Below, one piece after another: positions 2,212 to 52,074 of a stretch of 64,000 bases of DNA (positions are counted from its first letter, which is position 1; the number at the start of each line of letters is the position of its first letter). Made by a program: the position numbers and the translations under genes. The stretch spans positions 17,253 to 81,252 of the forward strand of contig JAFSCX010000045.1 in the NCBI GenBank assembly GCA_017436525.1, given 5' to 3'. The notes beneath the pieces were generated by a model. The model ran no database searches and was not told the origin of the DNA. It saw only the letters and a program-made list of their open reading frames with translations. The stretch comes from Clostridia bacterium (lineage in GTDB: Bacteria > Bacillota > Clostridia > Oscillospirales > QAKW01).

Positions 2212-5200
2212 TTATTTGCGCAGAAGCTGCTGCAATACCCAGGTTGCATCTGCAACGGTATATTGGCCATCGGATCCAAATGCACCGATCGTATCGTTCC
2301 ATACATCGGCAGCTTCATGCAAGGTAATATTCTCGCCGTTGGCTTTCCGAAGTATGCGGATTACATCGGCAAGGGTTACATTCTTATCGCCATTGGCGTC
2401 GCCCCAAGCATAGGCTGCCACATCGATCAGATTGACCCCGCCATCGAAAGAAATGACCTCAACATTCATCGAGCCATTCAGAATGGCGGAAGAATCATAG
2501 GGGCTTACAGTCATTACGCTCTTGCCGGCAGGAGCATTCTTTGCCACCTTGAAGGGAAGGGTTGCAAAATCACCCATGCCTTCCTCAATATTTTCCGCCC
2601 AGATAAAGGCAATCTTCAATTCACCCGGGTCATCACCGACCACCTTAATCTCATAGCCGGTTGCAACTGTGTTTTCATCATCAAAATCAAAGATCGCAGA
2701 ATCATATTCAATCTTCATGACCAAGGCGTTGCCGGGGGCGACGGGAATTCCTTTCAGATTCACCTTCACCTCTACCTGCTCACCGGCATGAACCAAAGGA
2801 GCAGAAAGGGTAACGGCTGCGCCGGTGAGTGCGGGAATCTCTCTGCTATTAAATCTTCCGCAAACACACTCTTGGCGCTCCTCACCTTTCACATCAAGGG
2901 CTGGTGCTTTTACAATTTCCCATGGACCGAAGGTACAGGAATCAAAGGTATCGCTGCCGCAACGGATGCAATAATGGCGATGCTCCAGCTTTTCATCAGC
3001 TAAGGAATAGCTATATTCGCAATTCTCAACCATACCGGAACCGCAAATACACTTAATAAGATGGCTGCCGTTATCCAATTTCTCTACCTGCGTATATTGG
3101 CATTTCTCTGTAAATTCTCTGCCGCAAGCGCAGTTTTCGGCATGGGTGCCATTCCCATGATCTGCCCATTCGCCATCATGGGTGCAAAGAACCGCTTCTT
3201 CGCCCTTCTTGCAAGCGGAGCAGAACCAGCTATGGGTGGAACCATCCTCATTCATTGTATAGGTAAGGGTGCCGGTATGTCTGCAGTCTACGGAAACAGC
3301 AATTTCCACATCGGTGCCCTGCATGGTCAGGATATGATTGAATTCGCCGCTGACCAAGGCCGATCCGCTTACAACTTCAATATCGGAAATATCGTAATTA
3401 TCAACCAACACCTCAAAAGCGGCATCTCCGTTGACATATCTCTCTTCCAACGTCTCCCCGCCCAGGGTGATGGTCAGCCTGCGTACTGCATTGTCTTTAT
3501 TACCGAATACCGTCATGCCTTCCTCGTTCATGGTCCAATAAACGGGAGCTAAATCGCCATGACGATAAAAATCATTGTTCATGGTATAAGCCATGAAGCC
3601 ATTATCATATTTCCGCCGAGCAAAAGAATGGGTTCTGCTGCACTCTACGATCGCAGCAGAAGGATGGCTTGCATAGCCATAGATCAAGTGCGTACCGATC
3701 GAATAAGTGTTTTGATAGGGAGTGCTTGCAGCCGTGGTCTGGCTCTGATAGCTGCCGCCCTGGCCGATGGCTGTATTATAGCCGGCAGAAGAGCCGGAAG
3801 CCAGCAGGTTATAGCAATTATAGAACCGACCGCCGCCGTTGGAAGCATAGGCGTTCAGGCCATGAACATACTCTTCATTACCGGATACGACACCGATATT
3901 ATAGCAACCATAAAGAATACCTGCACCGCGGCCCACAATACCGCCGATACGGGATCTTGCGCCCTTATTGCTTGCATTGACCGTAAGACCGTTCCAGCAA
4001 TTTGCAATCAAAGAGCCGCTATCGGCAACGCCCGCAAAAGCACCGATACCCTGATCCTGAGAGCAAACGTCTTTGATGTTAACCGTTCCGCTGGCAAGAC
4101 CAATATTCTGAATGACACCGGTGCCTAAGTGGGCCACCAAGCCAAAGCTATTATCGAAAACGGTAGTGCCGCTTTCTGTTGAGCCGAAGCCGTTGGGGTC
4201 TGTTTGGGTTATATTAAAGTTATAGAAATTATAACCATGGCCATCTACCAGACCGTTGAAGGTAGCGCCGTAAGCCAAGGGCCATACAGCCTCATTTTCC
4301 ATATCAATGTCCCCGGCCAGATGCAGCCGCAAAGCAGCAACATCCCGAGGCACCATCTCAGTGGCATAAATCCAATCTTCCTTGCTGCTGATCAGCCAAT
4401 CGGTGAAATGATAATCTGCCAATTCTTTATAGCGGGAAATGGAAGGCAGATAGGGATATTCTGCAGAAAGTTTGCCGTTGCCGATCGCCTCTTTTACAAT
4501 GTTGAAGGCGGCAACTGCCTCATAAATCGCAACGCACTTTTCATCATCACTCGCTACATTTTGAATCTTTACCAATGCATTGCGCAAATTCTCAATGCTT
4601 TCGCCGCCTGCTTCTCCGAAGGTATCCACCAAATCCTCCGCCTCGCCCAGATGGGAAGGATCGGGGCTCACCATGGAGTAGTTTACAGTGGTATAATCTT
4701 TATCCAAGACAACAACATCGGGAGTTTCGTTATCCAGCTCATATCCCGGCAATTTGGGCAACTCGCTCAGCTGATAAGAATCATTTTTATAGCGATAGAG
4801 GCGTTCGGGGGCACCATAAATCTCCCGCCCTCTGCCGAGGCCGGAAAAATCGTCCACATATCTTTGAAGCAGAAGCACAACCGGCTTCTCGCTCTCATCA
4901 AAGGAACGGGTCAATTTCGTCTTACCGTTCTTTCCGATGGTCCAGAATGCACCGTCATCCTCGCCCAGTTTCTGAGCGCTTTCGTTCATCTGATGAGCAA
5001 TTTCGATCTTATGGAAATCCTCAGAGGGAATGCGAAGCTGAAGCTCATCCTTTACCATCGGATTGTTTGCCTCGGTATTCGCCACTTTGCTTCCCTCGGG
5101 CGCAATCCAGAATACATTTTCATACTTTGAGGCGGTTACAGTTGCATTGGAAGAGCCAATTGCGCGCGCCACATAAAAAGCGTCATCGTGAACATAGGTT

Positions 5201-7062
5201 GCGGTCGCTTCACACCAGCTGTTCTTTATGGTCAAGGTATTGCCCCAATGGCGGCCGACCAAGCCGGCATTATTATTGTCGTTTGCGGCAGATTTGGCCA
5301 TAATCCAAATCTTACCGGTAGCCGTTACATCATGGAGATACGTGCTGCCGCTCACACGCTCAACCACCAAGGAGGGATAGGTATATCCCCCGGTGGCTAC
5401 TGCTTTATAATATTGATCATAGCAGGCCTCTGCATTCTCCAAAGAGAGGTTTTTCAAAGAGCCGCCGTTGATCTCGCAGATCAATCCGCCCATGGCATTG
5501 GCTTCGACGGCAGGAAGATAGGCATAGCTCTTCCAGTTATATAGGGTGTGGTTCTTACCGTCGATATTATAATCTACAATGGTATTGGCGCCGATAGGCA
5601 CATAATAATCAACGTCGATAAGAGTGAGGTCATTCATATCCACATTATCGATAAATTGAACTTCCGCTACGCCGAAATTGCTGCTGAGGGCATTGAAGGA
5701 AGAAAAGAGCCCAAAGATAAAGAGATCATCCGCGCTTGCAATTTCCAAAGCCTCGCCGCTGAAATTCAGCACGCCGTTTTTACGGGCAGCTGCGGAAATC
5801 CGGCCAAAAAGGGCATTTTCCTTTGCCCAATCATTGCCCACTACATTCTTTGCATCGGCAGCAGGCAGCCGCTTGGCTACTACTGCATCATCCTTGATAT
5901 AAGTCAATACGGGATAGCCGGCTTCGGAATATTCATATGCCACGCTATACCCATCGGTTTGAGGATCGGAGGAAATATCTTTATTCAGCTTTTTATGGAG
6001 CTCGGAGAATTCTTCAGCAGTAAAGGAGGTAGCGCCGTCGAATGCATTTTCTGCCACAGGGCCGTCTTTCAATGCCCCATCCTTTTCCCAGCCGGGCTTG
6101 CCGATGGTATCAAGGTAGAAGTTGTTGGCACTGGTTTTGGGGATCGCCACTGCTTCCTCTTCGTCGGTCTCTTCATCTGCTTTGATCTGAACCCGCAAAA
6201 TTGCGCCGAAATAATCGGCAGAGGAGGAATCAAGGCCTTTGAAGCCATCGATCAAAGTACCCGCACTGTAGCTATTGGCAATCTGAAGGGTGCACTCTTC
6301 TTCCTGATCACCGCGCACCAGACCAACCAAACCTGCCGCGGCATTTTTATAGTTATAAACCAGCCCCAGATTGTAGCAATTGGTAAGAGTAGCCTTTCCG
6401 TCCAGCACAGTGCCGACCAAGCCGCCTGCTGCATCTCCGCCGCCACCGATGACCGTGGCTGCATTCCAGCAGTTGATCAGCTTGGTATCGCCATGGGCAA
6501 GGCCTACAACCGAGCCGGTGCGATCTGCGCCTACAATAAGACCGCTTGCAATACCTACATTCTTGATGGTGGCATTATAGCAGTTGCCGAAAAGGCCTAC
6601 GCCATAGGAAGAACCAAGATACATGTAAAGATTTGTGAAAACAAACCCATTCCCGTCGAATGTACCGCGGAAGGTATAAAAATCTTCATTGTATGTCAGC
6701 GCAGCATTTGCAGCACTATCAATGTCGTTGAGAGAAACGGCGCCGATTCCTGCAAAGGGCGTGCCGCTCATATCAATATCTTTGGCCATGGTGAAGGAGT
6801 AGCCTTCCATTTTGGTTTTTCTGGCCACCTGCTTCGCGATAATATCCATCCCTTTACGGTCGGTTACTTTATACGCTTTGATACTGCCCTTAAAACCGTC
6901 CCCGATATCAGGCAACGCCGATACATCGACAAGGCCTTTTTCGGGCACGATCTCATCATAGTTGCTTTCTGCGGCTGCAGGCAGGCAGAAGCTTGCCATC
7001 AGCGAAAGAAGCATACATACAATGGCGATAGCGGAAATCACCCGCGTCTTCTTTGTGAACAT
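2212..7062 (-). CDS. giant secreted surface protein (1616 aa) with GLUG-like repeats, a Cys/His-rich repeat region, a cohesin-like module and a C-terminal dockerin-like module
   Basis: ORF 2212..7107, trimmed to ATG 7062 (MFTKKTRVISAIAIVCMLLSLMASFCLPAAA signal peptide; AGGAGG 10 nt upstream). It carries G-L-x-G repeats (GGLVGTV, AGLVGLVRG, NAGLVGRHWG, IGGIVGRGAG). The cohesin-like segment is AVTLSAPLVHAGEQVEVKVNLKGIP...FKVAKNAPAGKSV (about 2422..2820). The dockerin-like pair is GDANGDKNVTLADVIRILRK and SDGQYTVADATWVLQQLL (about 2215..2421). Confidence 0.85.
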   Translation of the reverse strand: MFTKKTRVISAIAIVCMLLSLMASFCLPAAAESNYDEIVPEKGLVDVSALPDIGDGFKGSIKAYKVTDRKGMDIIAKQVARKTKMEGYSFTMAKDIDMSGTPFAGIGAVSLNDIDSAANAALTYNEDFYTFRGTFDGNGFVFTNLYMYLGSSYGVGLFGNCYNATIKNVGIASGLIVGADRTGSVVGLAHGDTKLINCWNAATVIGGGGDAAGGLVGTVLDGKATLTNCYNLGLVYNYKNAAAGLVGLVRGDQEEECTLQIANSYSAGTLIDGFKGLDSSSADYFGAILRVQIKADEETDEEEAVAIPKTSANNFYLDTIGKPGWEKDGALKDGPVAENAFDGATSFTAEEFSELHKKLNKDISSDPQTDGYSVAYEYSEAGYPVLTYIKDDAVVAKRLPAADAKNVVGNDWAKENALFGRISAAARKNGVLNFSGEALEIASADDLFIFGLFSSFNALSSNFGVAEVQFIDNVDMNDLTLIDVDYYVPIGANTIVDYNIDGKNHTLYNWKSYAYLPAVEANAMGGLICEINGGSLKNLSLENAEACYDQYYKAVATGGYTYPSLVVERVSGSTYLHDVTATGKIWIMAKSAANDNNNAGLVGRHWGNTLTIKNSWCEATATYVHDDAFYVARAIGSSNATVTASKYENVFWIAPEGSKVANTEANNPMVKDELQLRIPSEDFHKIEIAHQMNESAQKLGEDDGAFWTIGKNGKTKLTRSFDESEKPVVLLLQRYVDDFSGLGRGREIYGAPERLYRYKNDSYQLSELPKLPGYELDNETPDVVVLDKDYTTVNYSMVSPDPSHLGEAEDLVDTFGEAGGESIENLRNALVKIQNVASDDEKCVAIYEAVAAFNIVKEAIGNGKLSAEYPYLPSISRYKELADYHFTDWLISSKEDWIYATEMVPRDVAALRLHLAGDIDMENEAVWPLAYGATFNGLVDGHGYNFYNFNITQTDPNGFGSTESGTTVFDNSFGLVAHLGTGVIQNIGLASGTVNIKDVCSQDQGIGAFAGVADSGSLIANCWNGLTVNASNKGARSRIGGIVGRGAGILYGCYNIGVVSGNEEYVHGLNAYASNGGGRFYNCYNLLASGSSAGYNTAIGQGGSYQSQTTAASTPYQNTYSIGTHLIYGYASHPSAAIVECSRTHSFARRKYDNGFMAYTMNNDFYRHGDLAPVYWTMNEEGMTVFGNKDNAVRRLTITLGGETLEERYVNGDAAFEVLVDNYDISDIEVVSGSALVSGEFNHILTMQGTDVEIAVSVDCRHTGTLTYTMNEDGSTHSWFCSACKKGEEAVLCTHDGEWADHGNGTHAENCACGREFTEKCQYTQVEKLDNGSHLIKCICGSGMVENCEYSYSLADEKLEHRHYCIRCGSDTFDSCTFGPWEIVKAPALDVKGEERQECVCGRFNSREIPALTGAAVTLSAPLVHAGEQVEVKVNLKGIPVAPGNALVMKIEYDSAIFDFDDENTVATGYEIKVVGDDPGELKIAFIWAENIEEGMGDFATLPFKVAKNAPAGKSVMTVSPYDSSAILNGSMNVEVISFDGGVNLIDVAAYAWGDANGDKNVTLADVIRILRKANGENITLHEAADVWNDTIGAFGSDGQYTVADATWVLQQLLRK

Positions 7063-7146
7063 ATTTGCTGTTCCTCCTTTATAACTTGCCCCACCAAATA
7101 AGGGCATAAAACCCTAATAGATATAATGAGACTATTATTCGATGAT

Positions 7147-7268: not shown

Positions 7269-8267
7269 TCATTTAGAGAAAATATATTCCGTTACAGACT
7301 TAAATTCCGCTCCCGCTTTTAAGGTTGCGGAAGGGAAAGCGGGATGATTGGGAGAATCGGGATAGAATTGAGTCTCCAGGCAAACACCGGAATGTTTGCC
7401 GATGGGCGCATTTTTCCCTGCGCGATCGCCGGTGCAATTACCGGTATAGATCTGCACACCGGGCAGATCGGTGCGGCAGGTCATGGAGATGCCGGTATCA
7501 GGGGAGGTAAGGACCACCGCTTCCCGAAGTCCTTCGCCGTCCACGCAAAAATTATGATCATAGCCCGCACCCTTGGCCAGCTGCTCATCGGCAGCATCGA
7601 TATCCTTGCCGATGGGCTTTGCCATGCGAAAATCAAAGGGTGTGCCCTCCACGGACCGCAGCTCGCCGAAGGGGATCAGCAGATCATCCATGGGCGTAAA
7701 CGCGGAGGCATTGACCTTCATCAAATGATTTAAGATGGGGGCGCCGGTCTCGCCGTTGAGATTGAAATAGCAATGATTGGTAGGATTAAAGACCGTATCC
7801 CGATCGCTCTTGGCTTCATAGGTCAGCCGCAGGGTATCCTCCTCTACCGTAAAGATCACCGCAATCTCCATATTGCCGGGATAGCCCTCTTCTCCATGGG
7901 CCAATGTATTAGTCATGCGAAGGGCATTCTTCCCTGCCGCTTCTGCCTTCCAGATCTTATGAGAGAGGCCGATCCTGCCGCCGTGAAGATGGCCTCTGCC
8001 CTCTTCATTACAGCCCACATCATATTCCACCCCGTTTAAGGTGAATTTACCGCCTGCGATTCGATTGGCATAGCGGCCGACCGTAGCGCCAAGATAGCCA
8101 TCATTGGTCTCATATTCCTCTAAAGTATTATAGCCAAGCGCTACATCAACACCCTTATAGCGGATGGATTGAAGGGTGGCGCCGAAGGTCAGCACCGTAA
8201 CGCTCAGATCCCCGTTGGTAATGGTATAGGCCTCTGCGCTGCCGAAAATTCTCTTTTCAATGCTCAT
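7269..8267 (-). CDS. galM: aldose 1-epimerase (galactose mutarotase)
   Basis: MSIEKRIFGSAEAYTITNGDLSVTVLTFGATLQSIRYKGVDVALGYNTLEEYE...GRYANRIAGGKFTLNGVEY...HLHGG is the typical mutarotase pattern. Start trimmed to ATG 8267, which has an AAGGAG RBS. Confidence 0.85.
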   Translation of the reverse strand: MSIEKRIFGSAEAYTITNGDLSVTVLTFGATLQSIRYKGVDVALGYNTLEEYETNDGYLGATVGRYANRIAGGKFTLNGVEYDVGCNEEGRGHLHGGRIGLSHKIWKAEAAGKNALRMTNTLAHGEEGYPGNMEIAVIFTVEEDTLRLTYEAKSDRDTVFNPTNHCYFNLNGETGAPILNHLMKVNASAFTPMDDLLIPFGELRSVEGTPFDFRMAKPIGKDIDAADEQLAKGAGYDHNFCVDGEGLREAVVLTSPDTGISMTCRTDLPGVQIYTGNCTGDRAGKNAPIGKHSGVCLETQFYPDSPNHPAFPSATLKAGAEFKSVTEYIFSK

Positions 8268-10593: not shown

Positions 10594-11439
10594 TCATTTC
10601 TTCACCGTGCATTTTGCCATCACTGCAAAATGATCGGAGATGATCACACCATCGGGCTGATCCGTAAGCACCGAATAATAGGATGGCAAAATCTTCTCGG
10701 GAGTCAAAAAGACATAATCGATCACCGCACTTCCCGCTTCACCGGTGAAACCATTAAAGGTGCCGGTGGTTTCCCCAAAGGAATCTGCCAGAAGGAAGGA
10801 ATCCACCAAAAGATCCTCGGCGGTGGTGTTGATATAGCCGCCGCTGCCCACATCGCAATTAATATCCCCCGTAAGAAAGACCGCCTTGCCCATCAGATTC
10901 TCCTTGATATAGCGATAAATCTGCGCGCCGGCATTTTCTTGGCTTTTGAAGGTTAGGCCGTAATGGGTATTGAGATGGGTGAAGTTTACCCCTGTCTTTT
11001 TATCCTTGAAATCGCAGCGGGTTACAATGCGGGCGAATTCATCATCCCAGGATTTTGATTCCTCATGGGGCGTATCGGAAAGCCAAAAATACTCTTCATA
11101 AAGCAGCTCCAGCCGATCGGCATTATAAATAATACCCGTGGCCTCTTGAGAAGCGCTGCTGCGGTATTGCATCGCAATCTCATAGGAGCTCTCTTCATAA
11201 AAGGGCTCCATCATCAAATGCCAGCCGGGGGTATATTCCTGCACTCCCATTACATCCGGCTGATATTTTTCAATTAAGGCAATCAGCCCCTCCGAGCGGT
11301 AAAGCACATCCGGATCGGAAGAGTCGCCGCTTTGCCGCACATTCTGGGTAATGATGGTGATCTCTGCCTCTTTTTTTGCACAGCTGCAGCTGCAAAGCAG
11401 CAAAACAGCTGCCGACAACAATATAAAATATTTCTTCAT
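10594..11439 (-). CDS. endonuclease/exonuclease/phosphatase (EEP) family lipoprotein
   Basis: Lipobox signal MKKYFILLSAAVLLLCSC. EEP motifs are TQNV, GVQEY, FWLSDTP, NTH, GDINCD, IDYVF and SDHFAV. Confidence 0.8.
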   Translation of the reverse strand: MKKYFILLSAAVLLLCSCSCAKKEAEITIITQNVRQSGDSSDPDVLYRSEGLIALIEKYQPDVMGVQEYTPGWHLMMEPFYEESSYEIAMQYRSSASQEATGIIYNADRLELLYEEYFWLSDTPHEESKSWDDEFARIVTRCDFKDKKTGVNFTHLNTHYGLTFKSQENAGAQIYRYIKENLMGKAVFLTGDINCDVGSGGYINTTAEDLLVDSFLLADSFGETTGTFNGFTGEAGSAVIDYVFLTPEKILPSYYSVLTDQPDGVIISDHFAVMAKCTVKK

Positions 11440-11453
11440 AGTTCCTCTCTAAA

Positions 11454-11483
11454 ATAGCGGTGCGGGATCTCCCGCACCGCTAT
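11454..11483 (-). terminator. hairpin terminator between the two EEP lipoprotein genes
   Basis: ATAGCGGTGCGGGA-TC-TCCCGCACCGCTAT perfect 14-bp stem. The U-tract on the minus strand is weak. Confidence 0.5.
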
Positions 11484-11497
11484 TAAAAGTATATTAT

Positions 11498-12760
11498 TTA
11501 AGAAGGGATTACCACCTTGGCATGAATACCAAAGTGATCGGAAACATAATCATCTTCCACATTATAAGCCGAGCCGAATTTCTTCTGCAATACTTCATAA
11601 TGCAAAGGATAGAGGCCGGTGGAATCATAAGAGATCATGACAAAATCGATGATACCTTTTTGATTAATGTATTCGCCATTCTCATCAAAAGCATCAGCAG
11701 GTGTTTTATAACCGCTGCTGGTGGAGTGCTCATCATAGCCGAGATTGAGCTCAAAGTTCAGATCGCCGACCAAGCCCTCTGTCACCAAGGCGTTATACTC
11801 AGGGCTTGAAATATTCATATTATAGTCGCCGACAACAATGATCGGAAGCTTGCGGTTGTTGCTGATTCTCTCCAATTCACTATTCATGACAGCGGCGCTC
11901 TTTTCTCTGGCCTTATTATCCAAAGAATAGTGCACGCTTGCAAAGACAAACTGCTTACCGGTCTCATTATTCTTCAGCTTCACCCAGTTGCAGATACGAT
12001 GCTGATCGGTCTGCCCTGCAAAAATACTTACCGAATTGGGGGTATCGCCCAGCCAGAAATGCCCTGCATCCAGCTTGGTGAAGCGATCCTTCTTCCAGAA
12101 AACAGGCTCGCACTCATCGCCTGCACCACCGCCGGTCTCGGTTCCGCTCTCACGGAAGCAATGATAGTAATCATACTGATCCTTATAATCCTCTTTCAGG
12201 AACTCAAGCCACTTGGGAGTAACCTCCTGGAAGCCCATGACATCGGGATCAAGAGAATCCACCTGATGCTTCAGCCGCAAGTGGCGGTTCTCCAAGGTGG
12301 TGCCGGGATGGGTGCCGGCATCGCTGATGCAGCGAACGTTCTGATCCAGAATGGTGATGATATCGGCATCGGTATACTTTGGAATCCCGCTATCCTCGTC
12401 CCAAATATCTTCATCTTCATCATTATCGTCGGGAATATCTTGATCATTCCCATTATCAATATTCTCGTTGTCATCCGGATCTTCGCTGTTATCATTGGAA
12501 TTGCTGCCGTTAATATCATTATCATTGCCGGTACCACCTTCATTGGTTACATAGATGGTATCGCCGGGGATGGTAACAATATCGATAATAGGATCGCCGG
12601 TATAAGGCACATTCTGCACCTCATCCTTTCCCTCTACCGATACAGCCCCGTAAGATCCGGCAAGATCCTCATAGGTGCGGCCGCCGGCGCAGGATGCAAG
12701 CATTGTAACGCTCATCATCATGACCACCAGCAACGCAATCCATTTATTGCTCTTCTTCAT
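11498..12760 (-). CDS. EEP family lipoprotein with an Asp/Asn-rich low-complexity linker
   Basis: ORF 11498..12877, trimmed to MKKSNKWIALLVVMMMSVTMLASCAGG (lipobox). Linker is GNDNDINGSNSNDNSEDPDDNENIDNGNDQDIPDDNDEDEDIWDEDSG. EEP motifs are LDQNV, GFQEV, FWLGDTP, SVH, GDYN, IDFVM and SDHFGI. Confidence 0.8.
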   Translation of the reverse strand: MKKSNKWIALLVVMMMSVTMLASCAGGRTYEDLAGSYGAVSVEGKDEVQNVPYTGDPIIDIVTIPGDTIYVTNEGGTGNDNDINGSNSNDNSEDPDDNENIDNGNDQDIPDDNDEDEDIWDEDSGIPKYTDADIITILDQNVRCISDAGTHPGTTLENRHLRLKHQVDSLDPDVMGFQEVTPKWLEFLKEDYKDQYDYYHCFRESGTETGGGAGDECEPVFWKKDRFTKLDAGHFWLGDTPNSVSIFAGQTDQHRICNWVKLKNNETGKQFVFASVHYSLDNKAREKSAAVMNSELERISNNRKLPIIVVGDYNMNISSPEYNALVTEGLVGDLNFELNLGYDEHSTSSGYKTPADAFDENGEYINQKGIIDFVMISYDSTGLYPLHYEVLQKKFGSAYNVEDDYVSDHFGIHAKVVIPS

Positions 12761-12968
12761 AATCTGCCTCCTTCCCCCTTGATAGGGGAAATTCCTTCTT
12801 GAGATAGTTTTAGATAATAGTATTATAGCATGCTTCTGTCTACGATTGGATAACGTCATGTTGTTTTTATTTAACACAATGTTGCTAAAACCTCGTTTTT
12901 ATACTTTTTTAATGCAATCCTTTTTTATTTCGTGTATAATAAAGAAAACGACGAATTCGGAGGAAACA

Positions 12969-14462
12969 ATGAACAAACGAGAAAGCGGCGTCTTGCTGCA
13001 TCTTTCATCCTTACACGGCCCCTACGGCACCGGCTGCTTTGGAAAAGAAGCCCGCGCTTTTATTGATTTTCTGCATCAGGCAGGCTTTAAGGTCTGGCAG
13101 GTGCTTCCTTTCTCTCTCCCCGATGAGGGCGGCTCTCCCTATAAAAGCGTAAGTGCCTTTGCGGGCAACCCTTATTTCATTGATCCGGAGCAGCTTTTCG
13201 AGCAGCAGCTCATTACGGAGGAAGAGCTGAAAAGCTGCCGCGGGACCCAGCCTTATACCGTCGATTTCCCTTGGCTGCACGCCCAGCGAACGGCCCTTTT
13301 CCATCGCGCCTATTTAAGGTGCTCCCAAGAGCTGCTGGCTCAGGTCGATCAATTTGCTTCGGAGCAGCCTTGGGCGGAGGATTTCGCCCTTTATACCGCA
13401 TTGCAGCAAAAGAGCGGCAAGGATTGGTACGATTGGGAGCCGGCGCTGAAAAACCGAGAGCCGGAGGCCCTTGCAAAAGCAAAAAGTGAATTGCGCGCAG
13501 AAATGCAAGAGATTCTCTTCATTCAATATCTCTTTTTCAGCCAATGGGCTGCTCTTAGGGCCTATGCCAATGAGCGGGGCATCCAAATCATCGGCGATAT
13601 GCCCATCTATGTATCCTTGGAAAGCGCCGATGTATGGAGCAATCGGCGTCTTTTTCAGCTGGATGATGAGGGGCAGCCTCGCAGCGTAGCAGGAGTGCCG
13701 CCCGATTTCTTCAGCGAGGACGGCCAGAGATGGGGGAATCCGCTCTATGATTGGGATAAAATGGAGCAGGAGGATTTTCTTTGGTGGCGCAGGCGTATCC
13801 GCTCTGCCCTCACCCTCTATGATCGGGTAAGAATCGACCATTTTCGCGGTCTTTCCGCTTATTGGGCAGTCCCCGCTAAAGCCGAGACTGCCAAAGAAGG
13901 GCATTGGATTCAAGGCCCCGGTATGAAACTGCTGGAGCGGCTTTTCAAGGAATTTTCACCCGATGCTCTGATCGCCGAGGATTTAGGGGTCCGCGATAAG
14001 GAGCTGGAAACCCTGCTCAAGGAAAGCGGCTTGCCGGGGATGCGGGTCTTTCAGTTTGCTTTTCCCTCCCAAGACGGCGGCCTGCATTTGCCCCATAATT
14101 ACCCCGAAAACACCCTTTGCTATACCGGCACCCACGATAATAATACCCTCCTTGCCTACCTTTGGGAGCTGCCCCCTGAGCAGCGAAGAGAAGCCTTGGA
14201 ATATTGCGGTTTTTTGGGAGAAGATTGGCAGAGCGGCGGAGCGGAAAATGCCGCTATTCGCGCTATTTTACGCTGCCTTTGGTGCTCGGCCGCACGAACG
14301 GTCGTTGTACCGGTGCAGGATCTTCTCGGCTATGGGGGCGATACCAAAATGAACCGGCCGGGCGTGGCGGAGGGCAACTGGCAATTCCGCCTTACCTCCA
14401 TCGGTTTTTCTCAATTAAATCCCGCCACCTATCGAAAATTAAACCGTATATACGAGCGATAA
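12969..14462 (+). CDS. malQ: 4-alpha-glucanotransferase (amylomaltase, GH77)
   Basis: MNKRESGVLLHLSSLHGPYGTGCFGKEARAFIDFL..., IGDMPIYV, RIDHFRG, IAEDLG and GTHDN motifs. Start trimmed to ATG 12969 with a GGAGG RBS. Confidence 0.9.
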   Translation: MNKRESGVLLHLSSLHGPYGTGCFGKEARAFIDFLHQAGFKVWQVLPFSLPDEGGSPYKSVSAFAGNPYFIDPEQLFEQQLITEEELKSCRGTQPYTVDFPWLHAQRTALFHRAYLRCSQELLAQVDQFASEQPWAEDFALYTALQQKSGKDWYDWEPALKNREPEALAKAKSELRAEMQEILFIQYLFFSQWAALRAYANERGIQIIGDMPIYVSLESADVWSNRRLFQLDDEGQPRSVAGVPPDFFSEDGQRWGNPLYDWDKMEQEDFLWWRRRIRSALTLYDRVRIDHFRGLSAYWAVPAKAETAKEGHWIQGPGMKLLERLFKEFSPDALIAEDLGVRDKELETLLKESGLPGMRVFQFAFPSQDGGLHLPHNYPENTLCYTGTHDNNTLLAYLWELPPEQRREALEYCGFLGEDWQSGGAENAAIRAILRCLWCSAARTVVVPVQDLLGYGGDTKMNRPGVAEGNWQFRLTSIGFSQLNPATYRKLNRIYER

Positions 14463-14468
14463 ATAAGA

Positions 14469-14498
14469 AGAGCTGTGAAAAAACTCACAGCTCTTTTT
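14469..14498 (+). terminator. rho-independent terminator after malQ (hairpin usable from both strands)
   Basis: AGAGCTGTGA-AAAAAAC-TCACAGCTCT followed by TTTT. On the minus strand it is followed by CTTATTTAT. Confidence 0.7.
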
Positions 14499-14514
14499 GT
14501 GTCTTATTTAATTG

Positions 14515-14670
14515 AATACTGTATTTTGAGATGGCAAAGGATTTGTTACAGATTTGCACCTGCTTTTTGCTCTTCGCCTGACGACGCCTCCACGCCGAAG
14601 GAACTTCCGCCGAATCTTTCGATGATTCCTTTCCTCGTCGCCTGCGGTCGATTTTGCAGGTCGGGCGCTT
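14515..14670 (-). ncRNA. glmS-type (glucosamine-6-phosphate) self-cleaving ribozyme-like element, not followed by glmS
   Basis: Minus strand reads AAGCGCCCGA CCTGC-AAAATCGACC-GCAGG CGACGAGG AAAGGAA TC ATCGAAAGATTCGGCGGAAG TTCCTT CGGCG... This matches the remembered glmS core blocks: A^GCGCCAGA, P1 hairpin, GACGAGG, P2.1 strand, AUCGAA..UUCGGCGGAUG, and the complementary P2.1 strand. Predicted cleavage lies between A14669 and G14668. I did not assign the 3' P3/P4 part, so the 3' boundary is approximate. Confidence 0.6.
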
Positions 14671-14703
14671 GACTTTATCCTTTCTTTTCCTCCATTGCCC
14701 AAA

Positions 14704-14732
14704 AGTATAACATTTTAACCCGATTTTGTCAA
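14704..14732 (-). promoter_or_regulatory. near-consensus sigma-A promoter driving the ribozyme-like RNA
   Basis: TTGACA (14732..14727), 17-nt spacer, TATACT (14709..14704). The predicted start is about 30 nt upstream of the ribozyme cleavage site. Confidence 0.65.
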
Positions 14733-14758
14733 TACCGCTTCTGAAAAACTTTATAAGA

Positions 14759-14795
14759 AAGAAGCCTTGGGTGCAGAAAAAGCGCCCAAGGCTTC
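14759..14795 (-). terminator. terminator after the thyX-to-CPBP operon
   Basis: Imperfect hairpin GAAGCCTTGGGTGC-AGAAAAA-GCGCCCAAGGCTTC directly after the stop at 14802. Confidence 0.6.
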
Positions 14796-14801
14796 TTCAA
14801 A

Positions 14802-15689
14802 TTAAAAAAATCCGTTGTAAACCATTTTACCGATGCAAAGAGCGGCAAAAGCCCAAATCCAAGGGCTCATCAAAGGATCTCCATAGGCCAAAGAGCGGGT
14901 AGATCGCTTGGCGATCTTGCCCTTGCCCAAGCGTTGCTCCACAACCGTCTCCAGCATTTTCAAGGTGAAAATCAAAATCAAAAAGCAGACCACAACCGTG
15001 ATAATCATGAAAAGGCGGTCCTGCAAAATATAGCGCACATAATCCTGATTTTTGGCAATATACAGCGCCACACCATTATTGATGGCATGGGCAAGCACCG
15101 CCGGCCATACACTCTTGAAAATCAAGGTCAATACGCCGTAGCAGACTCCCGCCACGAATAAAGAGGGAATATGCATGGGATTGGTATGGAAGAGGGCAAA
15201 GATCATCGCTGTCAGCAACACCCCTACTGTCGGCCCGTATTTTTCATACTCCCCTTGAGTCAGCCCCCGCAGCAAAAGCTCCTCCGATAGGGCAGGGAGC
15301 AGCACCGAGGTGAAGAAAAGAGCCGCCGCACTTTTTCCGCTCAAATCCACAATGGAATTTTCAAAAGATACATGAAAGACCGCCTTAAAAAGCGCATTGG
15401 TCCCCAAATTAATCAAGCTGCAGATCAAGCAGACGGAAAGGCCGAAAAGCAGGATAAACAGCCAATATTTCGGATGAACCATCTTTAATCGCAGGGCATG
15501 GCGCAGCTTATAGCGATGGGTTTTGGAATAGATCACCATCGGCAAAATATAGATCAATATGTAGATCAGCACCGTAAGCCCTGCGCCCATCTTCGGCAGC
15601 CATTGGCTTACAATGCTGAGCCCCAAAAGCATACCAAGGATCACCACCAGCAGGGCGGAAATTTCCTTGGAAACATCTCTTCTGCTCAT
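14802..15689 (-). CDS. CPBP family intramembrane glutamic endopeptidase (CAAX protease/Abi family)
   Basis: Polytopic membrane protein with EELLLRG, FALFH and HAINN motifs. Confidence 0.8.
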   Translation of the reverse strand: MSRRDVSKEISALLVVILGMLLGLSIVSQWLPKMGAGLTVLIYILIYILPMVIYSKTHRYKLRHALRLKMVHPKYWLFILLFGLSVCLICSLINLGTNALFKAVFHVSFENSIVDLSGKSAAALFFTSVLLPALSEELLLRGLTQGEYEKYGPTVGVLLTAMIFALFHTNPMHIPSLFVAGVCYGVLTLIFKSVWPAVLAHAINNGVALYIAKNQDYVRYILQDRLFMIITVVVCFLILIFTLKMLETVVEQRLGKGKIAKRSTRSLAYGDPLMSPWIWAFAALCIGKMVYNGFF

Positions 15690-30492: not shown

Positions 30493-32307
30493 TCAATTTT
30501 TCTTCATTATATGCTTCAAAAACAATCCGTAGCCCTCCGGCAAGACCATTCCATCGGCGCATCCTTCGCCGATCAGAAGCGTTCCTTGGATGGGAACGGG
30601 GGTTTTTCCGAAATTCATCAAGAGAGAAAGCGCATCGCCCCGCTCATAGCAAAGTACACCCTTTTCATGGGAAATAAAACGAAATTCCCCTGCAAAGGCT
30701 TCGCGATACTGCTTGCGAAGAGCACCCAGGCTTTTATAGAAGCCCAGCAGCTCCCCATCGCCTCCGCCCCAAGGATAGGTGCCGCGGCAATAAGGATCTC
30801 CATAGCCCTCCATTCCAAGCTCGTCTCCATAGAAAATACAAGGAATTCCCGGCAGGGTAAATTGCAGCAGCGCCGCTTTTTTCATAAGAGCGATGCCTTT
30901 TTTCCGCTGCTCTGCCGATAGATAATTATCCGCTTGGAATTCTCTGGGCGGGATCGTCTCTGCGCCCAGCCGATTGAGGATTCTCGGAATATCATGGGTG
31001 GAAAGGATATTCATCAAGCACCGCAACGCAGGCTGAGGATAGCTTTCCAAAAGCTCTGTGATGCTCTCATAAAAGGCATTCGTATCGCCCTTTTTGAGCA
31101 ACGCCGCAATGGCATCCAGCCAAGGATAATTCATCACTGTATCGCATTGGCGGCCCAGCAGGAATTTACGGCGCTTGCCGTAGCTGACCTTCTCTACCGC
31201 ATTTTCCCAGACCTCGCCGATAATAATGCTTTGGGGATTTTGCGCCTTGACCCGCTTGCGAAAAGCTTCCAAAAAGGCATCAGGCAGCTCATCTGCCACA
31301 TCCAGCCGCCAGCCATAGGCGCCCCGCTCCATCCACAGGGCGGCGATCCCCTGCTCCCCGTTGATATAGCCCATAAAATCCGGAGCGGTCTCATCTACGC
31401 AGGGCAGGGCGGGGAACCCCCACCAGCAATCATATTTCTCGGGAAATTTTTCAAATTTATACCAATGATAAAAGGGACTTTCCTTGCTCTGATAAGCCCC
31501 CAATTCGGGATAAAGGCCTTCTTTATTAAAATAGCGGCTATTGGCGCCGGTATGAGAAAAAACCCCATCCAAGACAATGCGGATTCCCAGCTTCTTTGCC
31601 TCTTCGCAAAGGGCCGAAAAATCCTCATTTTCTCCTAAAAGGGGGTCGATCTGCTCATAATCGGCCGTACTGTAGCGGTGATTTTCCCCACTCTCAAAAA
31701 TGGGATTGAGATAAATGAGATCCACCCCAAGCTCTGCAAGATAAGGGAGCTTTTCTTGGATTCCTTTGAGATTTCCGCCAAAGAAATCATTGCCCTTAAA
31801 ATCGGCGCGATCTTGGGTAAAAAGAGGGCGCTCATCCCAGCGCTCATGATAGATTCTTGCCCCTTTTTCTTTTCTTTTTTGGGTATAATCGCCTTTATAA
31901 AAGCGATCGGGGAAGATCTGATACCAGATTCCTCCCGCCAACTCCTCGGGGGTATCAAAATCCTGATCATAGACCGTAAGCCGCCATTCGGGCAGCCAAT
32001 CGCCGATGGTAGCCTGATGGCCGTCGGCAGTGCCGATAAAGAGCAAGCCGCCCGCCGCTGTCTCTGCTTCAAAGCGATAGAAGCAAAGGCCCGCCCTCGG
32101 AAGGGTGAAACGCCCCTCAAAGGTTTCCTCGTCCACTCGCTCTAAAAAACGCACCTCCTGCGCTCCCTCTTCATAGCGAAAGACGGCGCGAATCCGCTTG
32201 CAGCAAGGCTCTTCCTTCAGGATCAACCGCAAGGTCATCGGCTCCCCCGCCCGCAGGGCACCGAAGGGGGTTTTATATTCTGTTTTTCTGCTGTCATAAT
32301 AAACCAT
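30493..32307 (-). CDS. GH13 alpha-amylase family glycoside hydrolase (neopullulanase/cyclomaltodextrinase-like)
   Basis: GH13 conserved regions VLDGVFSHTG, GWRLDVADEL, IIGEVWE and LSTHD, with an N-terminal beta-domain. Confidence 0.85.
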   Translation of the reverse strand: MVYYDSRKTEYKTPFGALRAGEPMTLRLILKEEPCCKRIRAVFRYEEGAQEVRFLERVDEETFEGRFTLPRAGLCFYRFEAETAAGGLLFIGTADGHQATIGDWLPEWRLTVYDQDFDTPEELAGGIWYQIFPDRFYKGDYTQKRKEKGARIYHERWDERPLFTQDRADFKGNDFFGGNLKGIQEKLPYLAELGVDLIYLNPIFESGENHRYSTADYEQIDPLLGENEDFSALCEEAKKLGIRIVLDGVFSHTGANSRYFNKEGLYPELGAYQSKESPFYHWYKFEKFPEKYDCWWGFPALPCVDETAPDFMGYINGEQGIAALWMERGAYGWRLDVADELPDAFLEAFRKRVKAQNPQSIIIGEVWENAVEKVSYGKRRKFLLGRQCDTVMNYPWLDAIAALLKKGDTNAFYESITELLESYPQPALRCLMNILSTHDIPRILNRLGAETIPPREFQADNYLSAEQRKKGIALMKKAALLQFTLPGIPCIFYGDELGMEGYGDPYCRGTYPWGGGDGELLGFYKSLGALRKQYREAFAGEFRFISHEKGVLCYERGDALSLLMNFGKTPVPIQGTLLIGEGCADGMVLPEGYGLFLKHIMKKN

Positions 32308-32608
32308 GCTTATACCTTATTCGATTTTTTTGGTTTTGTCAAGTAGGATACCCAATCACATTTGTCGAATGTTCCAATTTATCTTATTCTAAACAAATGA
32401 TTTTGGTTATTTTGAACAATTTTTTGATAAAAATTTTATGCAAATAATGGAATTTTAGAAAATACGTCAAATTTCCCTACCGATTTTATAATAAATGAGT
32501 TATACTAAAAAGTAGAAAAATATCCTTGCCGCTCATTTTTGAGGGAAGCTTGTCATAGACTGTCTCAAAAAGCGCGATGAAGATGAAATTTTAGGAGGAA
32601 CATTCAAG

Positions 32609-33823
32609 ATGAAAAACAAAGAAGCCCTCGCGATGCTTTTGGCAGGCGGGCAGGGAAGCCGTCTCTATGTCCTGACCCAAGAGACCGCAAAGCCTGCAAT
32701 TCCCTTCGGGGGAAAATACCGTATTATCGACTTTCCGTTGTCCAACTGCGTCAATTCCGGAATCGATACGGTCGGTGTATTGACCCAATACCGCCCCTTG
32801 GAGCTTCATTCCTACATCGGCAACGGCCAGCCTTGGGATCTTAATCGGATGAACGGTGGGGTACATATCCTTCCCCCCTATGTCTCCGGTGCTACCGGCG
32901 AGTGGTATAAGGGGACTGCAAATGCCATCTATCAGAATATCGAATTTATTGAAAAATATGATCCCGAATATGTCGTCATCCTTTCCGGCGACCATATTTA
33001 TAAAATGGACTACAATAAAATGATTGAGTTCCATAAAGAGAAAAAGGCGGATGCCACCATCGCCACCTTAAGCGTTCCCATGGAGGAGGCAAGCCGCTTT
33101 GGTATTGTCAACGCCGATGAGGACGATAAGATTTATGAATTCGAGGAGAAGCCTCCCGTACCCAAGTCCAATCGGGCCTCCATGGGGGTCTATACCTTTA
33201 CCTGGAAGAAGCTGCGCCATTATCTGATCGAAGATGAAAAGACCGAAGGCAGCAGCAACGATTTCGGCAAGAATGTCCTGCCCGCCATGCTGGAGGCAGG
33301 TGAGCGGATGTTTGCTTATCCTTTTGATGGCTATTGGAAGGACGTGGGCACCATCGAAAGCCTTTGGGAGGCCAATATGGATCTGCTCAACCCCAATATC
33401 CCCTTGAATCTTTCGGATCCGGATTGGAAGATCTATGCCCGCCACGGCCATAGCCTGCTGCCCCAATATATCGGCAAGGATGTGGAGATCGGCGAATCGG
33501 CTGTTACTGAAAATTGCTCCTTGAAGGGTTGCTCTCTTTGGTATAGCGTCCTCTTCTCCGGCGTCGAAGTGGAGGAAGGCTCCAAGCTGAATTCCGCTGT
33601 CGTTATGGAAAATACCAAGATTGGTAAAAACTGCACCATTAAATATGCCATCATCGCCCCCGATGCCATCATTGAGGATGGCGCGATCATCGGCGCAGAG
33701 CCCGAAAATTATGATGGAGAATGGGGCATTGCGGTCGTCGGCTCCGGCGCGACTGTAAAAGCAGGGCAGAAGGTGCTCCCCAAAGAAATGATCAAACCCA
33801 ATACTGTAAAGGAGGCGGAATAA
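32609..33823 (+). CDS. glgC: glucose-1-phosphate adenylyltransferase, catalytic subunit
   Basis: [24 protein letters not shown] and [12 protein letters not shown] motifs, with a C-terminal left-handed beta-helix. Confidence 0.95.
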
Positions 33824-33825
33824 TC

Positions 33826-34941: not shown

Positions 34942-34946
34942 AATTT

Positions 34947-36365: not shown

Positions 36366-36495
36366 GTATAATTTCAAAAAAATAAGCACATAATAGAGGA
36401 AAAAAACATTTTTTCTATTGTGTGCTTCTTTTTTTTATGATATAATACCTTTATTGTTTTTTAATAATAATATTATTTAATTATAGGAGAAACCC

Positions 36496-44732: not shown

Positions 44733-46754
44733 GTGGAAAAGACAAAGAAAGAAACCATCAACCGCACCGCCGTGCGGAAAGAAAAATTCAAGCGCCCTGC
44801 CGAAAGAGGGCTCACCTTAGAAGAGCTGCTTTCCAGCAATGATCTGCTTCAAGCGGCAGACGGAAAGCGCGGCAGTGCCGAGAGCAGGCCTGCGCCCCGC
44901 CGAAAGAGCGCACCCCCTGCCCGCAAGAGTACAAGCGGCCCGCAAAAGAAGGCAGCTGCCCCTAAAAAACCTGCAGAGCCCAAGGAGAAAAAGGCGGCCT
45001 CTCAACCGGCCGCAAAGCGCCCCGCCCCCAAGGCCAATTCGCAAAAGGCGGCCTCTTCCAGACCTTCGGCCCCTAAGCGGGCGCCCAAGAAGCCTTTGAG
45101 CAAATTGAAGATTATTCCTTTGGGCGGCCTTGATGAGATCGGCAAGAATATGACCGTCTTCGAATATGAAGAGGATATCATCATTGTAGATTGCGGCCTT
45201 GCCTTTCCGGGGAGCGATATGCTGGGGGTTGATCTGGTCATCCCCGATATCTCATATCTGAGAAAAAATATGCAAAAGATCCGCGGCATCTTCTTAACCC
45301 ACGGCCATGAGGATCATATCGGCGCACTGCCTTATGTACTAAAGGAATTCAATGTGCCGATCTTCGGCAATAAGCTGACCCTCGGCCTTGTGCGCCGCAA
45401 GCTGGCAGAGCATCGCATGGATAAGACCGCCCAGCTGCATGAGACCGCTCCGGGGACGATTATCACCCGCGGATGCTTCAAGGTGGAATTCATCAAGGTA
45501 AACCATTCCATCCCCGATGCGGCAGGCTTTGCGATTACAACGCCTGTTGGAATCATCCTCCATACCGGCGATTTCAAAATCGATACCACCCCCATCCACG
45601 GCCGCCCCATCGACCTTGCCCGCTTCGGCGTGCTTGGGAAAGAAGGGGTCCTGCTGCTGATGGCTGATTCTACCAATGCCGGCCGGCCGGGCATGGCGTC
45701 CTCCGAAAAGAAGGTGGGGAAAGCGCTGCTGCAGATCTTTGAGAGCGCAGGCGATCGGCGGGTCATTGTGGCCTCCTTTGCCTCCAATGTCCATCGGGTG
45801 CAGCAGATCGTGGATGCCTCGGTAAAGCATGGCAGAAAGGTGGCCGCCTCCGGCCGCTCAATGGAAAGCGTCATTGCAGTGGCGCAGGAATTGGGCTATC
45901 TGAAGATGCCCAAAGGGACGCTCATCCCCTTGGAGCAGGTCTCCAAATACCCCCACGACCGCGTTACCCTCATTACCACCGGCTCCCAAGGCGAGCCCAT
46001 GAGTGCCCTTTATCGGATGGCGTTTTCCGATCACCGGACCATCTCGGTCAGTCAGAATGATTTGATTATTATCTCCGCCTCCCCCATCCCCGGCAACGAG
46101 CGGCTGGTGGGCAGAGTGGTCAACGAGCTGGAAAAGCTGGGCGCAACGGTTGTCGATAATAAGATGGCGGATGTCCATGTCTCGGGCCATGCCTGCCAAG
46201 AAGAGCTGAAGCTGATCTTGGGGCTGGTGAAGCCTAAATTCTTTATGCCGGTCCATGGCGAATTTCATCATCTTTCCGCTCACGCTCAATTGGCGCAGGA
46301 GGCCGGCATGAGCGAAGAGCAGATCATCATGGGCGAAAACGGCAGTGTGCTGGAGCTGGATCGGGATCATGCCAAAATCACCGGTTCTGTCCAGGCAGGG
46401 GCTATCATGGTGGACGGCATCGGCGTAGGCGATGTAGGCAACATTGTCTTGCGGGATCGCCGCATCCTCTCTCAGGAAGGCATTATTCTGGCGGTTGCCG
46501 CGGTCAATAAGCTGACCAAAGAGATTGTAAGCGGTCCCGATATCATCACCCGCGGCTTCATCTATGTGCGGGAGAATGAAGATCTGATGGAAGAGACCCG
46601 CTTTGTGGCAGAGACGGCCCTCAAAAAAAGCCTTGCAAAGGGAAATTTGGATTGGGCCTCGCTGAAAAGCGATGTGCGGGATGCCCTTGGCAGCTATATC
46701 TCCTCCAAGACCAAGCGCGCACCGATGATTATCCCTGTAATTATGGATGTATAA
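44733..46754 (+). CDS. rnj: ribonuclease J with a Lys/Ala/Pro-rich N-terminal extension of about 115 aa
   Basis: Metallo-beta-lactamase HGHEDHIG, beta-CASP region, HVSGHACQEEL. GTG start with an AAAGGAG RBS. The N-terminus is KKAAAPKKPAEPKEKKAASQPAAKRPAPKANSQKAASSRPSAPKRAPKKP. Confidence 0.9.
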   Translation: MEKTKKETINRTAVRKEKFKRPAERGLTLEELLSSNDLLQAADGKRGSAESRPAPRRKSAPPARKSTSGPQKKAAAPKKPAEPKEKKAASQPAAKRPAPKANSQKAASSRPSAPKRAPKKPLSKLKIIPLGGLDEIGKNMTVFEYEEDIIIVDCGLAFPGSDMLGVDLVIPDISYLRKNMQKIRGIFLTHGHEDHIGALPYVLKEFNVPIFGNKLTLGLVRRKLAEHRMDKTAQLHETAPGTIITRGCFKVEFIKVNHSIPDAAGFAITTPVGIILHTGDFKIDTTPIHGRPIDLARFGVLGKEGVLLLMADSTNAGRPGMASSEKKVGKALLQIFESAGDRRVIVASFASNVHRVQQIVDASVKHGRKVAASGRSMESVIAVAQELGYLKMPKGTLIPLEQVSKYPHDRVTLITTGSQGEPMSALYRMAFSDHRTISVSQNDLIIISASPIPGNERLVGRVVNELEKLGATVVDNKMADVHVSGHACQEELKLILGLVKPKFFMPVHGEFHHLSAHAQLAQEAGMSEEQIIMGENGSVLELDRDHAKITGSVQAGAIMVDGIGVGDVGNIVLRDRRILSQEGIILAVAAVNKLTKEIVSGPDIITRGFIYVRENEDLMEETRFVAETALKKSLAKGNLDWASLKSDVRDALGSYISSKTKRAPMIIPVIMDV

Positions 46755-48881: not shown

Positions 48882-49445
48882 TTAGAAAAACAAATGCTCA
48901 ATTAGAATCTTCGTGCCGATTCCGATCAGAATCAGCCCGCCGAAGATCTGAGCCTTATCCTTCAGCATCCCGCCGAAGAGGCGCCCGATATAGACACCGG
49001 CAGTGCTGATGATAAAGGTGCTGATTCCGATGATGGCCACAGTACGATAAGCCTCGCTATAGCTTGCGATATCGGCGGTCATTCCAATCCCTACCGCCAG
49101 CGCATCAATGCTGGTGGCCACCCCTTGGATCAAAAGATTTTTTGCGCAAAAGGGATTGGCCGCTTGCTCCTCTTCCTCTTTTTTCAATACTCCTCGGATC
49201 ATATTGATGCCGATCCCTGCCAGCAGGATAAAGCCGATCCAATGGTCTACAGCGGAGATATACTTCATAAAGCTCATCCCCAAAAAGAGGCCGATAAGAG
49301 GCATGGCTGCCTGAAAGAGGCCGAAGGTGAGCCCATCGACCAGCGCATGGCGAGGCTTGAGCCTTCCGCCGCACATTCCGTTGGTAATGGATACCGCAAA
49401 AGCATCCATCGCAAGCCCGATTCCTAAGATCATAGCTGTCCACAT
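48882..49445 (-). CDS. mntP: manganese efflux pump MntP
   Basis: MWTAMILGIGLAMDAFAVSITNGM, SIDALAVGIGM and GGLILIGIGTKIL motifs. ATG 49445 overlaps the stop of the upstream gene (TAATG). Confidence 0.8.
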   Translation of the reverse strand: MWTAMILGIGLAMDAFAVSITNGMCGGRLKPRHALVDGLTFGLFQAAMPLIGLFLGMSFMKYISAVDHWIGFILLAGIGINMIRGVLKKEEEEQAANPFCAKNLLIQGVATSIDALAVGIGMTADIASYSEAYRTVAIIGISTFIISTAGVYIGRLFGGMLKDKAQIFGGLILIGIGTKILIEHLFF

Positions 49446-52021: not shown

Positions 52022-52035
52022 GAACGATGCAAAAA

Positions 52036-52067
52036 GGCTGTAAAAAATCTTGCGATTTTTTACAGCC
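52036..52067. terminator. bidirectional terminator between the DUF378 gene and prs (copy 2 of the dispersed hairpin)
   Basis: GGCTGTAAAAAATC-TTGC-GATTTTTTACAGCC, flanked by AAAAA and TTTTT. Confidence 0.7.
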
Positions 52068-52074
52068 CTTTTTA

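Follow-up and report, generated by a model that had tools for sequence, protein, structure and literature searches.

The glmS ribozyme, which uses glucosamine-6-phosphate (GlcN6P) as its cofactor, is in its canonical form (B. subtilis, T. tengcongensis, B. anthracis) a part of the 5' untranslated region (UTR) of glmS, and all but two of 463 representatives are reportedly placed in glmS mRNAs in an abstract of 2011. An RNA of the same family is described here from a Clostridia bacterium (contig JAFSCX010000045.1 of assembly GCA_017436525.1), in a stretch of 64,000 nt that was analysed as a whole; it is called the window below, and coordinates refer to it. On the minus strand, between malQ and the gene of an Rce1-like CAAX protease, the window contains a short unit composed of a promoter, a leader, a full-length glmS ribozyme, a tail and a terminator. 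The unit has the cleavage site, core and P3-P4 domain of the canonical ribozyme, and the same cofactor chemistry and decay through a 5'-OH end and RNase J are presumed for it, but neither glmS nor any other open reading frame (ORF) lies downstream. It differs from the canonical ribozyme just in not belonging to a 5' UTR, and is very probably an RNA gene in its own right that selection maintains, in either orientation, at a conserved locus away from glmS. The ribozyme class is known; the genetic architecture is new and evolutionarily maintained.

Metabolite-sensing domains in non-coding transcripts with their own promoter and terminator are represented by EutX/Rli55, an adenosylcobalamin (AdoCbl) riboswitch small RNA (sRNA) that sequesters EutV, and by SreA/SreB, trans-acting S-adenosylmethionine (SAM) riboswitch elements of Listeria. 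In such transcripts the amount of functional RNA is governed by the ligand. The unit resembles them in this arrangement, but they rely on ligand-induced termination, whereas the unit has a self-cleaving ribozyme, the output of which would be RNA decay. The analogy with GlmY/GlmZ of Enterobacteria is one of logic only (an sRNA that becomes scarcer as GlcN6P becomes abundant and exerts feedback on the synthesis of amino sugars), without kinship in sequence or structure: GlcN6P is sensed there indirectly through proteins, whereas the unit's RNA itself would be the sensor, and neither a search of the window at the gathering threshold nor one of the unit at E <= 5 gave a match to the Rfam families of GlmY and GlmZ. 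A relative among the gut Clostridia, Faecalibacterium prausnitzii, has a hepatitis delta virus (HDV)-like ribozyme upstream of glmM that is reportedly modulated by GlcN6P (cited in PMC6765202); it shares the link to GlcN6P metabolism, but belongs to another class, lies 5' of its cognate gene and does not stand alone. A handful of riboswitch matches away from cognate genes have been considered as possible trans regulators or pseudo-regulatory elements (Barrick & Breaker 2007, PMC2258182). No account of glmS ribozyme genes that stand alone and form a conserved family was found in the literature searched (to which McCown et al. 2011 and 2012 did not belong).

That the RNA is a glmS ribozyme is virtually certain. 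A cmscan search against Rfam 15 gave one match to RF00234 in the window, at 14680..14523 on the minus strand (84.1 bits, E = 7e-18; the gathering threshold is 37). The alignment takes in the full model (positions 1-167 of 167) and is not truncated; orthologous units score 83-90 bits. An earlier note on this DNA had recognized a glmS-type core behind a near-perfect promoter, placed the cleavage site at 14669/14668 and proposed the RF00234 check, and its predictions are borne out: A14669 (A-1) and G14668 (G1) on the minus strand align with A^G in the Rfam consensus aAGCGCC. Besides the core of P1, P2, P2.1 and P2.2, which is compatible with the double pseudoknot, there is a peripheral P3-P4 domain whose L4 loop is of the GNRA type. 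AGCGCC is invariant across all orphan units; the GGC of UCGGCGG is able to pair with A^GCGCC as the P2.2 pseudoknot, and since AGCGCC and the downstream UUCGGCGGAAG are both invariant in 10 of 10 aligned units, P2.2 offers no covariation. The core blocks AGCGCC, GACGAGG (with the general-base G), AUCGA and UCGGCGG-A are all intact, and G42, C65, G66, G77 and G78, at which every substitution abolishes activity in kinetic sequencing (k-seq) of the B. subtilis ribozyme, are unchanged. Among the peripheral elements, the GNRA tetraloop L4 and the runs of adenine in IL4 proved important in saturation mutagenesis of the B. subtilis ribozyme (PMC11602151); L4 is GCAA, GUAA, GCGA or GUGA in all units, and GCAAAA and ACA(A/G)A, which carry the IL4 adenines, are invariant.

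The Rfam consensus has GGAUG where the unit has GGAAG, its sole deviation; in the numbering of B. subtilis, rebuilt from the k-seq table (G36-ACGAGG42 ... C62-GGCGG67-A68-U69-G70), the change corresponds to U69A. By k-seq, U69A has a yield of 0.81 and a k_obs of 0.075 s-1, compared with ~0.36 s-1 for the wild type (cleavage slowed about five-fold, at an undiminished yield), and U69G is dead (PMC11602151). A core pattern carrying the variant A was scanned over 185,579 species-representative genomes and was found in 15 species. The variant recurs in L010, L012, L013, L014, L018, L022 and L023 (L numbers designate the loci compared), from metagenome-assembled genomes (MAGs) of Erysipelotrichales, Synergistaceae and Oscillospiraceae; in L010, L012, L013, L018 and L023 a U69A-type ribozyme directly precedes glmS, as tblastn with GlmS confirms. 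Because it occurs naturally in ribozymes before glmS, the variant is compatible with ordinary glmS control. The unusual base was considered as a sign of inactivation, an idea rejected in view of its presence in glmS-linked ribozymes and its activity in k-seq. To judge from these features, the ribozyme is probably catalytically competent.

The ribozyme begins ~35 nt downstream of its promoter, for which the reading TTGACA-17-TATACT holds up. The -35 hexamer TTGACA (14727..14732, minus strand) and the extended -10 element TGTTATACT (14704..14712, minus strand; TG at 14712-14711, TATACT at 14709-14704) were found by promoter scan and match the consensus at 11 of 12 positions across a 17-nt spacer, the whole extending over 14732..14704. 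The hexamer and the spacing are identical in all 11 orthologous units, and the block AAAATGYTATACTTTT is kept in every one. This block was rejected as a signature of the family: a metagenome scan with TTGACA-N10-AAAATGYTATACTTTT gave 34 matches, none with a ribozyme and all ordinary strong promoters of mRNAs or tRNA, so its conservation indicates only a strong sigma-A promoter of generic form.

Transcription would start at ~14698-14696, judging by the position of the -10 element, which gives a leader of ~30 nt up to A-1 (14669..14698, minus strand) containing AAGGA and a Shine-Dalgarno (SD)-like GGAGG (14692-14688). The spacing between promoter and GGAG(G) is constant in almost every unit, and L007, a locus that lacks the ribozyme, shares it. 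SD-like AGGAGG or GAGGAGG is also found ~10-30 nt 5' of the cleavage site in L010 (~7010-7038), L013 (~330-356) and L014 (~7745-7774; all three oriented with the ribozyme on the plus strand); the ribozymes of L010 and L013 are glmS-linked, and that of L014, where the locus ends 72 nt past the ribozyme, is presumed to be so. Possibly the SD-like sequence serves generally to stabilise the 5' end and is lost on cleavage.

The ribozyme is followed by a single-stranded A/C-rich tail of ~27 nt (14496..14522, minus strand; ..CAGUAUUCAAUUAAAUAAGACACAAAA); its motif UAAUAA..(G)MACACAA is kept in all units in either orientation and persists in L007, where the ribozyme is missing. In the leader and the tail, a permissive Rfam scan revealed no credible match to a further family. 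An intrinsic terminator (14458..14495, minus strand), consisting of a hairpin (14495..14468) and a U-rich run, would end the transcript ~60 nt past the ribozyme; the predicted RNA of the unit is ~235 nt. The hairpin, which a terminator scan of both strands placed at 14463..14500, is shared with the convergent malQ and is able to terminate both ways; its U-tract in the unit's orientation is weak (CUUAUUUAUC), as the earlier note had remarked. Orthologous units have a hairpin at the same place, unrelated in sequence between species and in most cases with a clear U-tract, including good ones in the relatives of the same orientation (L015, UUUUAAUUU; L001, UUUUUGG; L003, UUUUUUUU). On the other side of the unit a hairpin GAAGAAGCCTTGGG...CCCAAGGCTTCTTTC followed by a T-run (14758..14798, minus strand) was read from the sequence, the automated scan having missed it because its loop exceeds 8 nt; it is probably the terminator of the upstream Rce1-like operon and would shield the unit from read-through. 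In the window, as in L004 and L006, the unit has a terminator on either side. In L004, which has the inverted arrangement, the strong insulating terminator after malQ was detected by the scan, and the promoter begins 16 nt past it.

The sequence beyond the unit's terminator hairpin is the 3' end of malQ, a convergent neighbour that lies outside the unit. The absence of glmS downstream, already noticed in the first reading of this DNA, extends to the whole 64-kb window (family scans of ORFs; tblastn with the GlmS protein), in which the sole ORF of glmS size encodes a GH13 enzyme, and tblastn with GlmS likewise found no glmS at any orphan locus. In the scan of 185,579 genomes, which used a narrow pattern, no orphan-bearing assembly contained a second ribozyme match.

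Contigs encoding MalQ homologues of falling identity were collected and scanned with Rfam, providing the comparison of synteny that had been suggested from the sequence, and the same element was found in the same slot in relatives. The malQ/Rce1-like synteny is kept in L001-L007, L011, L015-L021, L024 and L061, and the ribozyme occupies the slot at every locus with 61-95% MalQ identity and this synteny, with one exception. There are 11 distinct units (window, L015, L001, L003, L061, L016, L011, L004/L017, L024, L006/L019/L021 and L020), all from uncultured gut Clostridia and eight of them from GTDB species representatives annotated merely as Eubacteriales or Clostridia MAGs, several of which are from roe-deer gut. 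All have the same order of parts: promoter with TG, ~30-nt GGAG(G) leader, ribozyme, tail and terminator. The unit is directed at malQ in five of the 11 (window, L015, L001, L003 and L061, with MalQ identity of at least 73%) and at the Rce1-like gene in the other six, which comprise all the deeper relatives, as would be expected if the module had been inverted once as a whole. Since promoter, ribozyme, tail and flanking terminators survive inversion, the unit is an independent transcription unit.

At L007 (JGI Ga0318466_10017519, 11533-11671), which represents a separate species with MalQ ~80% identical to its nearest relatives, the slot keeps the promoter, GGAGG leader, tail and terminator, with the ribozyme precisely missing and a predicted remnant RNA of ~100 nt. 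At the margin of the clade (MalQ identity 61%, 57% and 54-55%) the malQ loci differ in synteny and lack the ribozyme, and no ancestral ribozyme-glmS arrangement was recovered among them.

The fold of the orphan ribozymes is evidently maintained. Within the family, 98.7% of 316 pair cells form standard pairs, compared with 30-54% when the partners are slid; double (compensatory) changes are found in 11 of 32 pairs, and in 500 column shuffles the covariation score observed was never attained. The covariation supports helices P1, P2, P2.1 and P3 as well as the P4 domain. Four-fold degenerate sites of malQ are only 30-47% identical when the window is compared with the other lineages, i.e. saturated, whereas the ribozyme core is 89-100% identical over the same comparisons; the P3-P4 domain has diverged to 43-68% identity, yet its helices are kept, and the terminator hairpins have turned over fully. 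Retention of core and fold while synonymous sites are saturated indicates that the unit is under selection and is not a decaying relic.

Overall, these findings are best explained by an independent non-coding RNA gene, not a 5' UTR, with a GlcN6P-gated ribozyme and with action in trans, an explanation given an even chance of being right as a whole; a metabolite-gated trans-acting RNA is also the best reading among the three options that the earlier note had offered. At low GlcN6P, full-length RNA would accumulate, protected by its triphosphate end and its SD-like leader, which may bind 30S subunits in the manner of Stab-SD elements (SD-like 5' sequences that stabilise RNA through 30S binding). 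At high GlcN6P, the RNA would be cut between A14669 and G14668, removing the leader and leaving a body with a 5'-OH end, which RNase J would degrade 5' to 3' as it does the Bacillus glmS mRNA; the level of the RNA would thus report GlcN6P inversely. The proposal of inverse gating derives from the decay established for Bacillus, where GlcN6P-dependent cleavage yields a 5'-OH end degraded by RNase J1 (reported by Collins et al. 2007), and from the presence in the window of an RNase J family gene (44733..46754, plus strand, by family match), which the first reading had also pointed out. Stability gated by GlcN6P is held with moderate confidence; cleavage in vivo, decay by RNase J and stabilisation by the leader are presumed.

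The intact RNA would act in trans, through its tail or its folded body, on an mRNA or a protein. L007, which keeps the tail motif with promoter, leader and terminator despite loss of the ribozyme, was counted in favour of the tail or body as the output, but a regulator acting in trans is a tentative assignment. By its parts, the unit looks like the promoter, leader and ribozyme of glmS with the coding part swapped for a short tail and a terminator. A more specific version, in which the sensor was uncoupled from glmS and controls glmS or other amino-sugar or cell-wall genes in trans through the tail, with a half-life set by cleavage and RNase J, is doubtful.

Several results weigh against a GlcN6P-gated RNA with targets in trans. 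The glmS gene of the clade itself was not reached: a protein search with GlmS of L018, whose glmS-linked ribozyme is the canonical one most similar to the orphans, gave a broad plateau at ~55% identity, and the accession blocks of three GlmS candidates labelled 'Clostridia bacterium' differ from the blocks to which the orphan-bearing MAGs belong. When duplex z-scores were computed for the tail and the leader with the 5' regions of 12 syntenic neighbour genes, using orthologues from up to 10 species, neither showed consistent complementarity to these genes. One of these genes, wecG, had mildly and consistently negative z-scores, and was rejected as a target because the duplexes were long, AU-rich and located on promoter DNA. 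Loss of the ribozyme in L007 and rearrangement of the slot in L060 mean that the unit is dispensable in some lineages. Part of the A-richness of the tail may be the A-tract of a two-way terminator, and in L006 the hairpin past the tail has no U-tract on the unit's strand, so that 3' ends may vary.

The lack of complementarity to neighbour mRNAs is in keeping with an output directed at protein instead: the intact RNA would bind or sequester a regulator, Hfq, the 30S subunit or RNase J, and cleavage would release it. Riboswitch-controlled sequestering RNAs are an established precedent (e.g., EutX/Rli55, which B12 causes to release EutV), and the GGAGG leader and the A/C-rich, (AN)n-like tail could be motifs for binding of proteins or ribosomes. 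These motifs, however, have little length or complexity, none of the loci has a candidate partner gene linked to the unit, the idea draws on analogy only, and a protein-directed role is considered improbable.

Control of an antisense transcript into malQ, one of the options in the earlier note, is ruled out as a conserved role. Read-through of the terminator would extend the RNA, under the gate of GlcN6P, into the convergent gene as an antisense transcript. In every case the unit faces the 3' end of a gene; the U-tract on the minus strand of the window is weak, and that of L006 is missing on the unit's strand. The gene on which it converges, however, is malQ in five lineages and, the unit being inverted in six of 11, the Rce1-like gene in six, so that no single target is conserved. 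The unit is bracketed by terminators, with good U-tracts in L015, L001 and L003, and only the extreme 3' end of the neighbour would be covered unless read-through were extensive. An antisense function in cis is therefore very unlikely.

Decay of an orphaned ribozyme, another of the options, is contradicted by the conservation of the unit, with compensatory changes, across lineages in which synonymous sites are saturated. In such an account glmS was moved or lost, leaving a promoter and ribozyme without function, much as riboswitch matches away from cognate genes were raised as possibly pseudo-regulatory (PMC2258182). The resemblance of the leader to glmS-linked ones (GGAGG in L010, L013 and L014) fits an origin from a glmS 5' UTR, and the loss of the ribozyme in L007 and the rearranged slot of L060 also agree with a relic. 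A functionless RNA of 160 nt would not hold its fold so long, however, with a core 89-100% identical beside four-fold sites of malQ at 30-47% and 11 helix pairs with compensatory double changes inside the orphan family, nor does a relic agree with near-consensus promoters and terminators in 11 of 11 units and a module left intact through an inversion. A pseudo-regulatory relic is scarcely credible on this evidence.

The possibility that the unit is the leader of an unrecognised small protein gene, or the product of misassembly, is negligible, since more than 15 contigs, assembled independently in different studies, show this architecture, and no ORF is conserved among relatives: the 64-codon ORF starting with TTG that had been noticed earlier does exist (14508..14702, minus strand) and overlaps the unit, but is not conserved, and the frame VTRKGIIE... 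that recurs in relatives was rejected as a hidden ORF because it is the invariant ribozyme core read in frame (19-74 codons, with an unconserved C-terminus, no SD sequence and a GTG start that is missing in the window).

The genes that bound the slot are malQ (12969..14462, plus strand), encoding a GH77 4-alpha-glucanotransferase of 497 aa (Pfam PF02446, E = 3.5e-157) to which a 497-aa protein in a public collection is 100% identical, and the Rce1-like CAAX protease gene (14802..15689, minus strand, Pfam PF02517), the last gene of the upstream operon. Beside the 3' end of the Rce1-like gene, L003 (~6060-6228) and L006 (~11895-12101) have an extra block of ~200 nt (CAGACTGTCAAAAAAG..CCGACCGCAGAA ... 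AATCCGCATAA.AATGCGGATTT hairpin), although the ribozyme units are oppositely oriented at these two loci. Two tandem Exo_endo_phos paralogues (10594-12877, minus strand) are directly upstream of malQ, as they are in all relatives, and a glycogen/alpha-glucan cluster (GH13 enzyme, glgC, glgD-like, glgA and glgP) is located at 30493-38895, 16 kb from malQ. The RNase J ORF has ~124 residues before the start of the family match, which are probably artefactual, the start having been set at the first GTG upstream, although a genuine extension of the N-terminus is conceivable. Three consecutive ORFs (49445-50176, minus strand; 50163-51662, minus strand; 52027-53241, plus strand) have no Pfam match at E <= 1e-5. 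An ORF of 1631 aa with a cohesin domain (2212-7107, minus strand) resembles a cellulosome scaffoldin, and L007 has a giant cohesin/dockerin ORF at the equivalent position; these ORFs hint at a fibrolytic clade.

The glmS ribozyme is the textbook metabolite-dependent ribozyme; it has been described purely as a device of feedback in cis on glmS mRNA and has been pursued as an antibiotic target on that basis. An independent gene, kept by selection and without a target in cis, implies that the fold has a second use, most plausibly in metabolite-gated stability of a regulatory RNA. Matches of covariance models to cis-regulatory families should therefore be checked for their context before the next gene is assigned to them. 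The unit is a compact system for experiment, consisting of one RNA of ~235 nt with a known ligand and a known nuclease, and a natural template for synthetic RNAs that are degradable on addition of a ligand. With it, the concept of sRNAs under riboswitch control would come to include self-cleaving ribozymes. If it does encode an sRNA that acts in trans on glmS or other amino-sugar or cell-wall genes, it would be to these Gram-positive bacteria what GlmY/GlmZ are to Enterobacteria, built of RNA alone, and would be the first sRNA in nature to be gated by a ribozyme.

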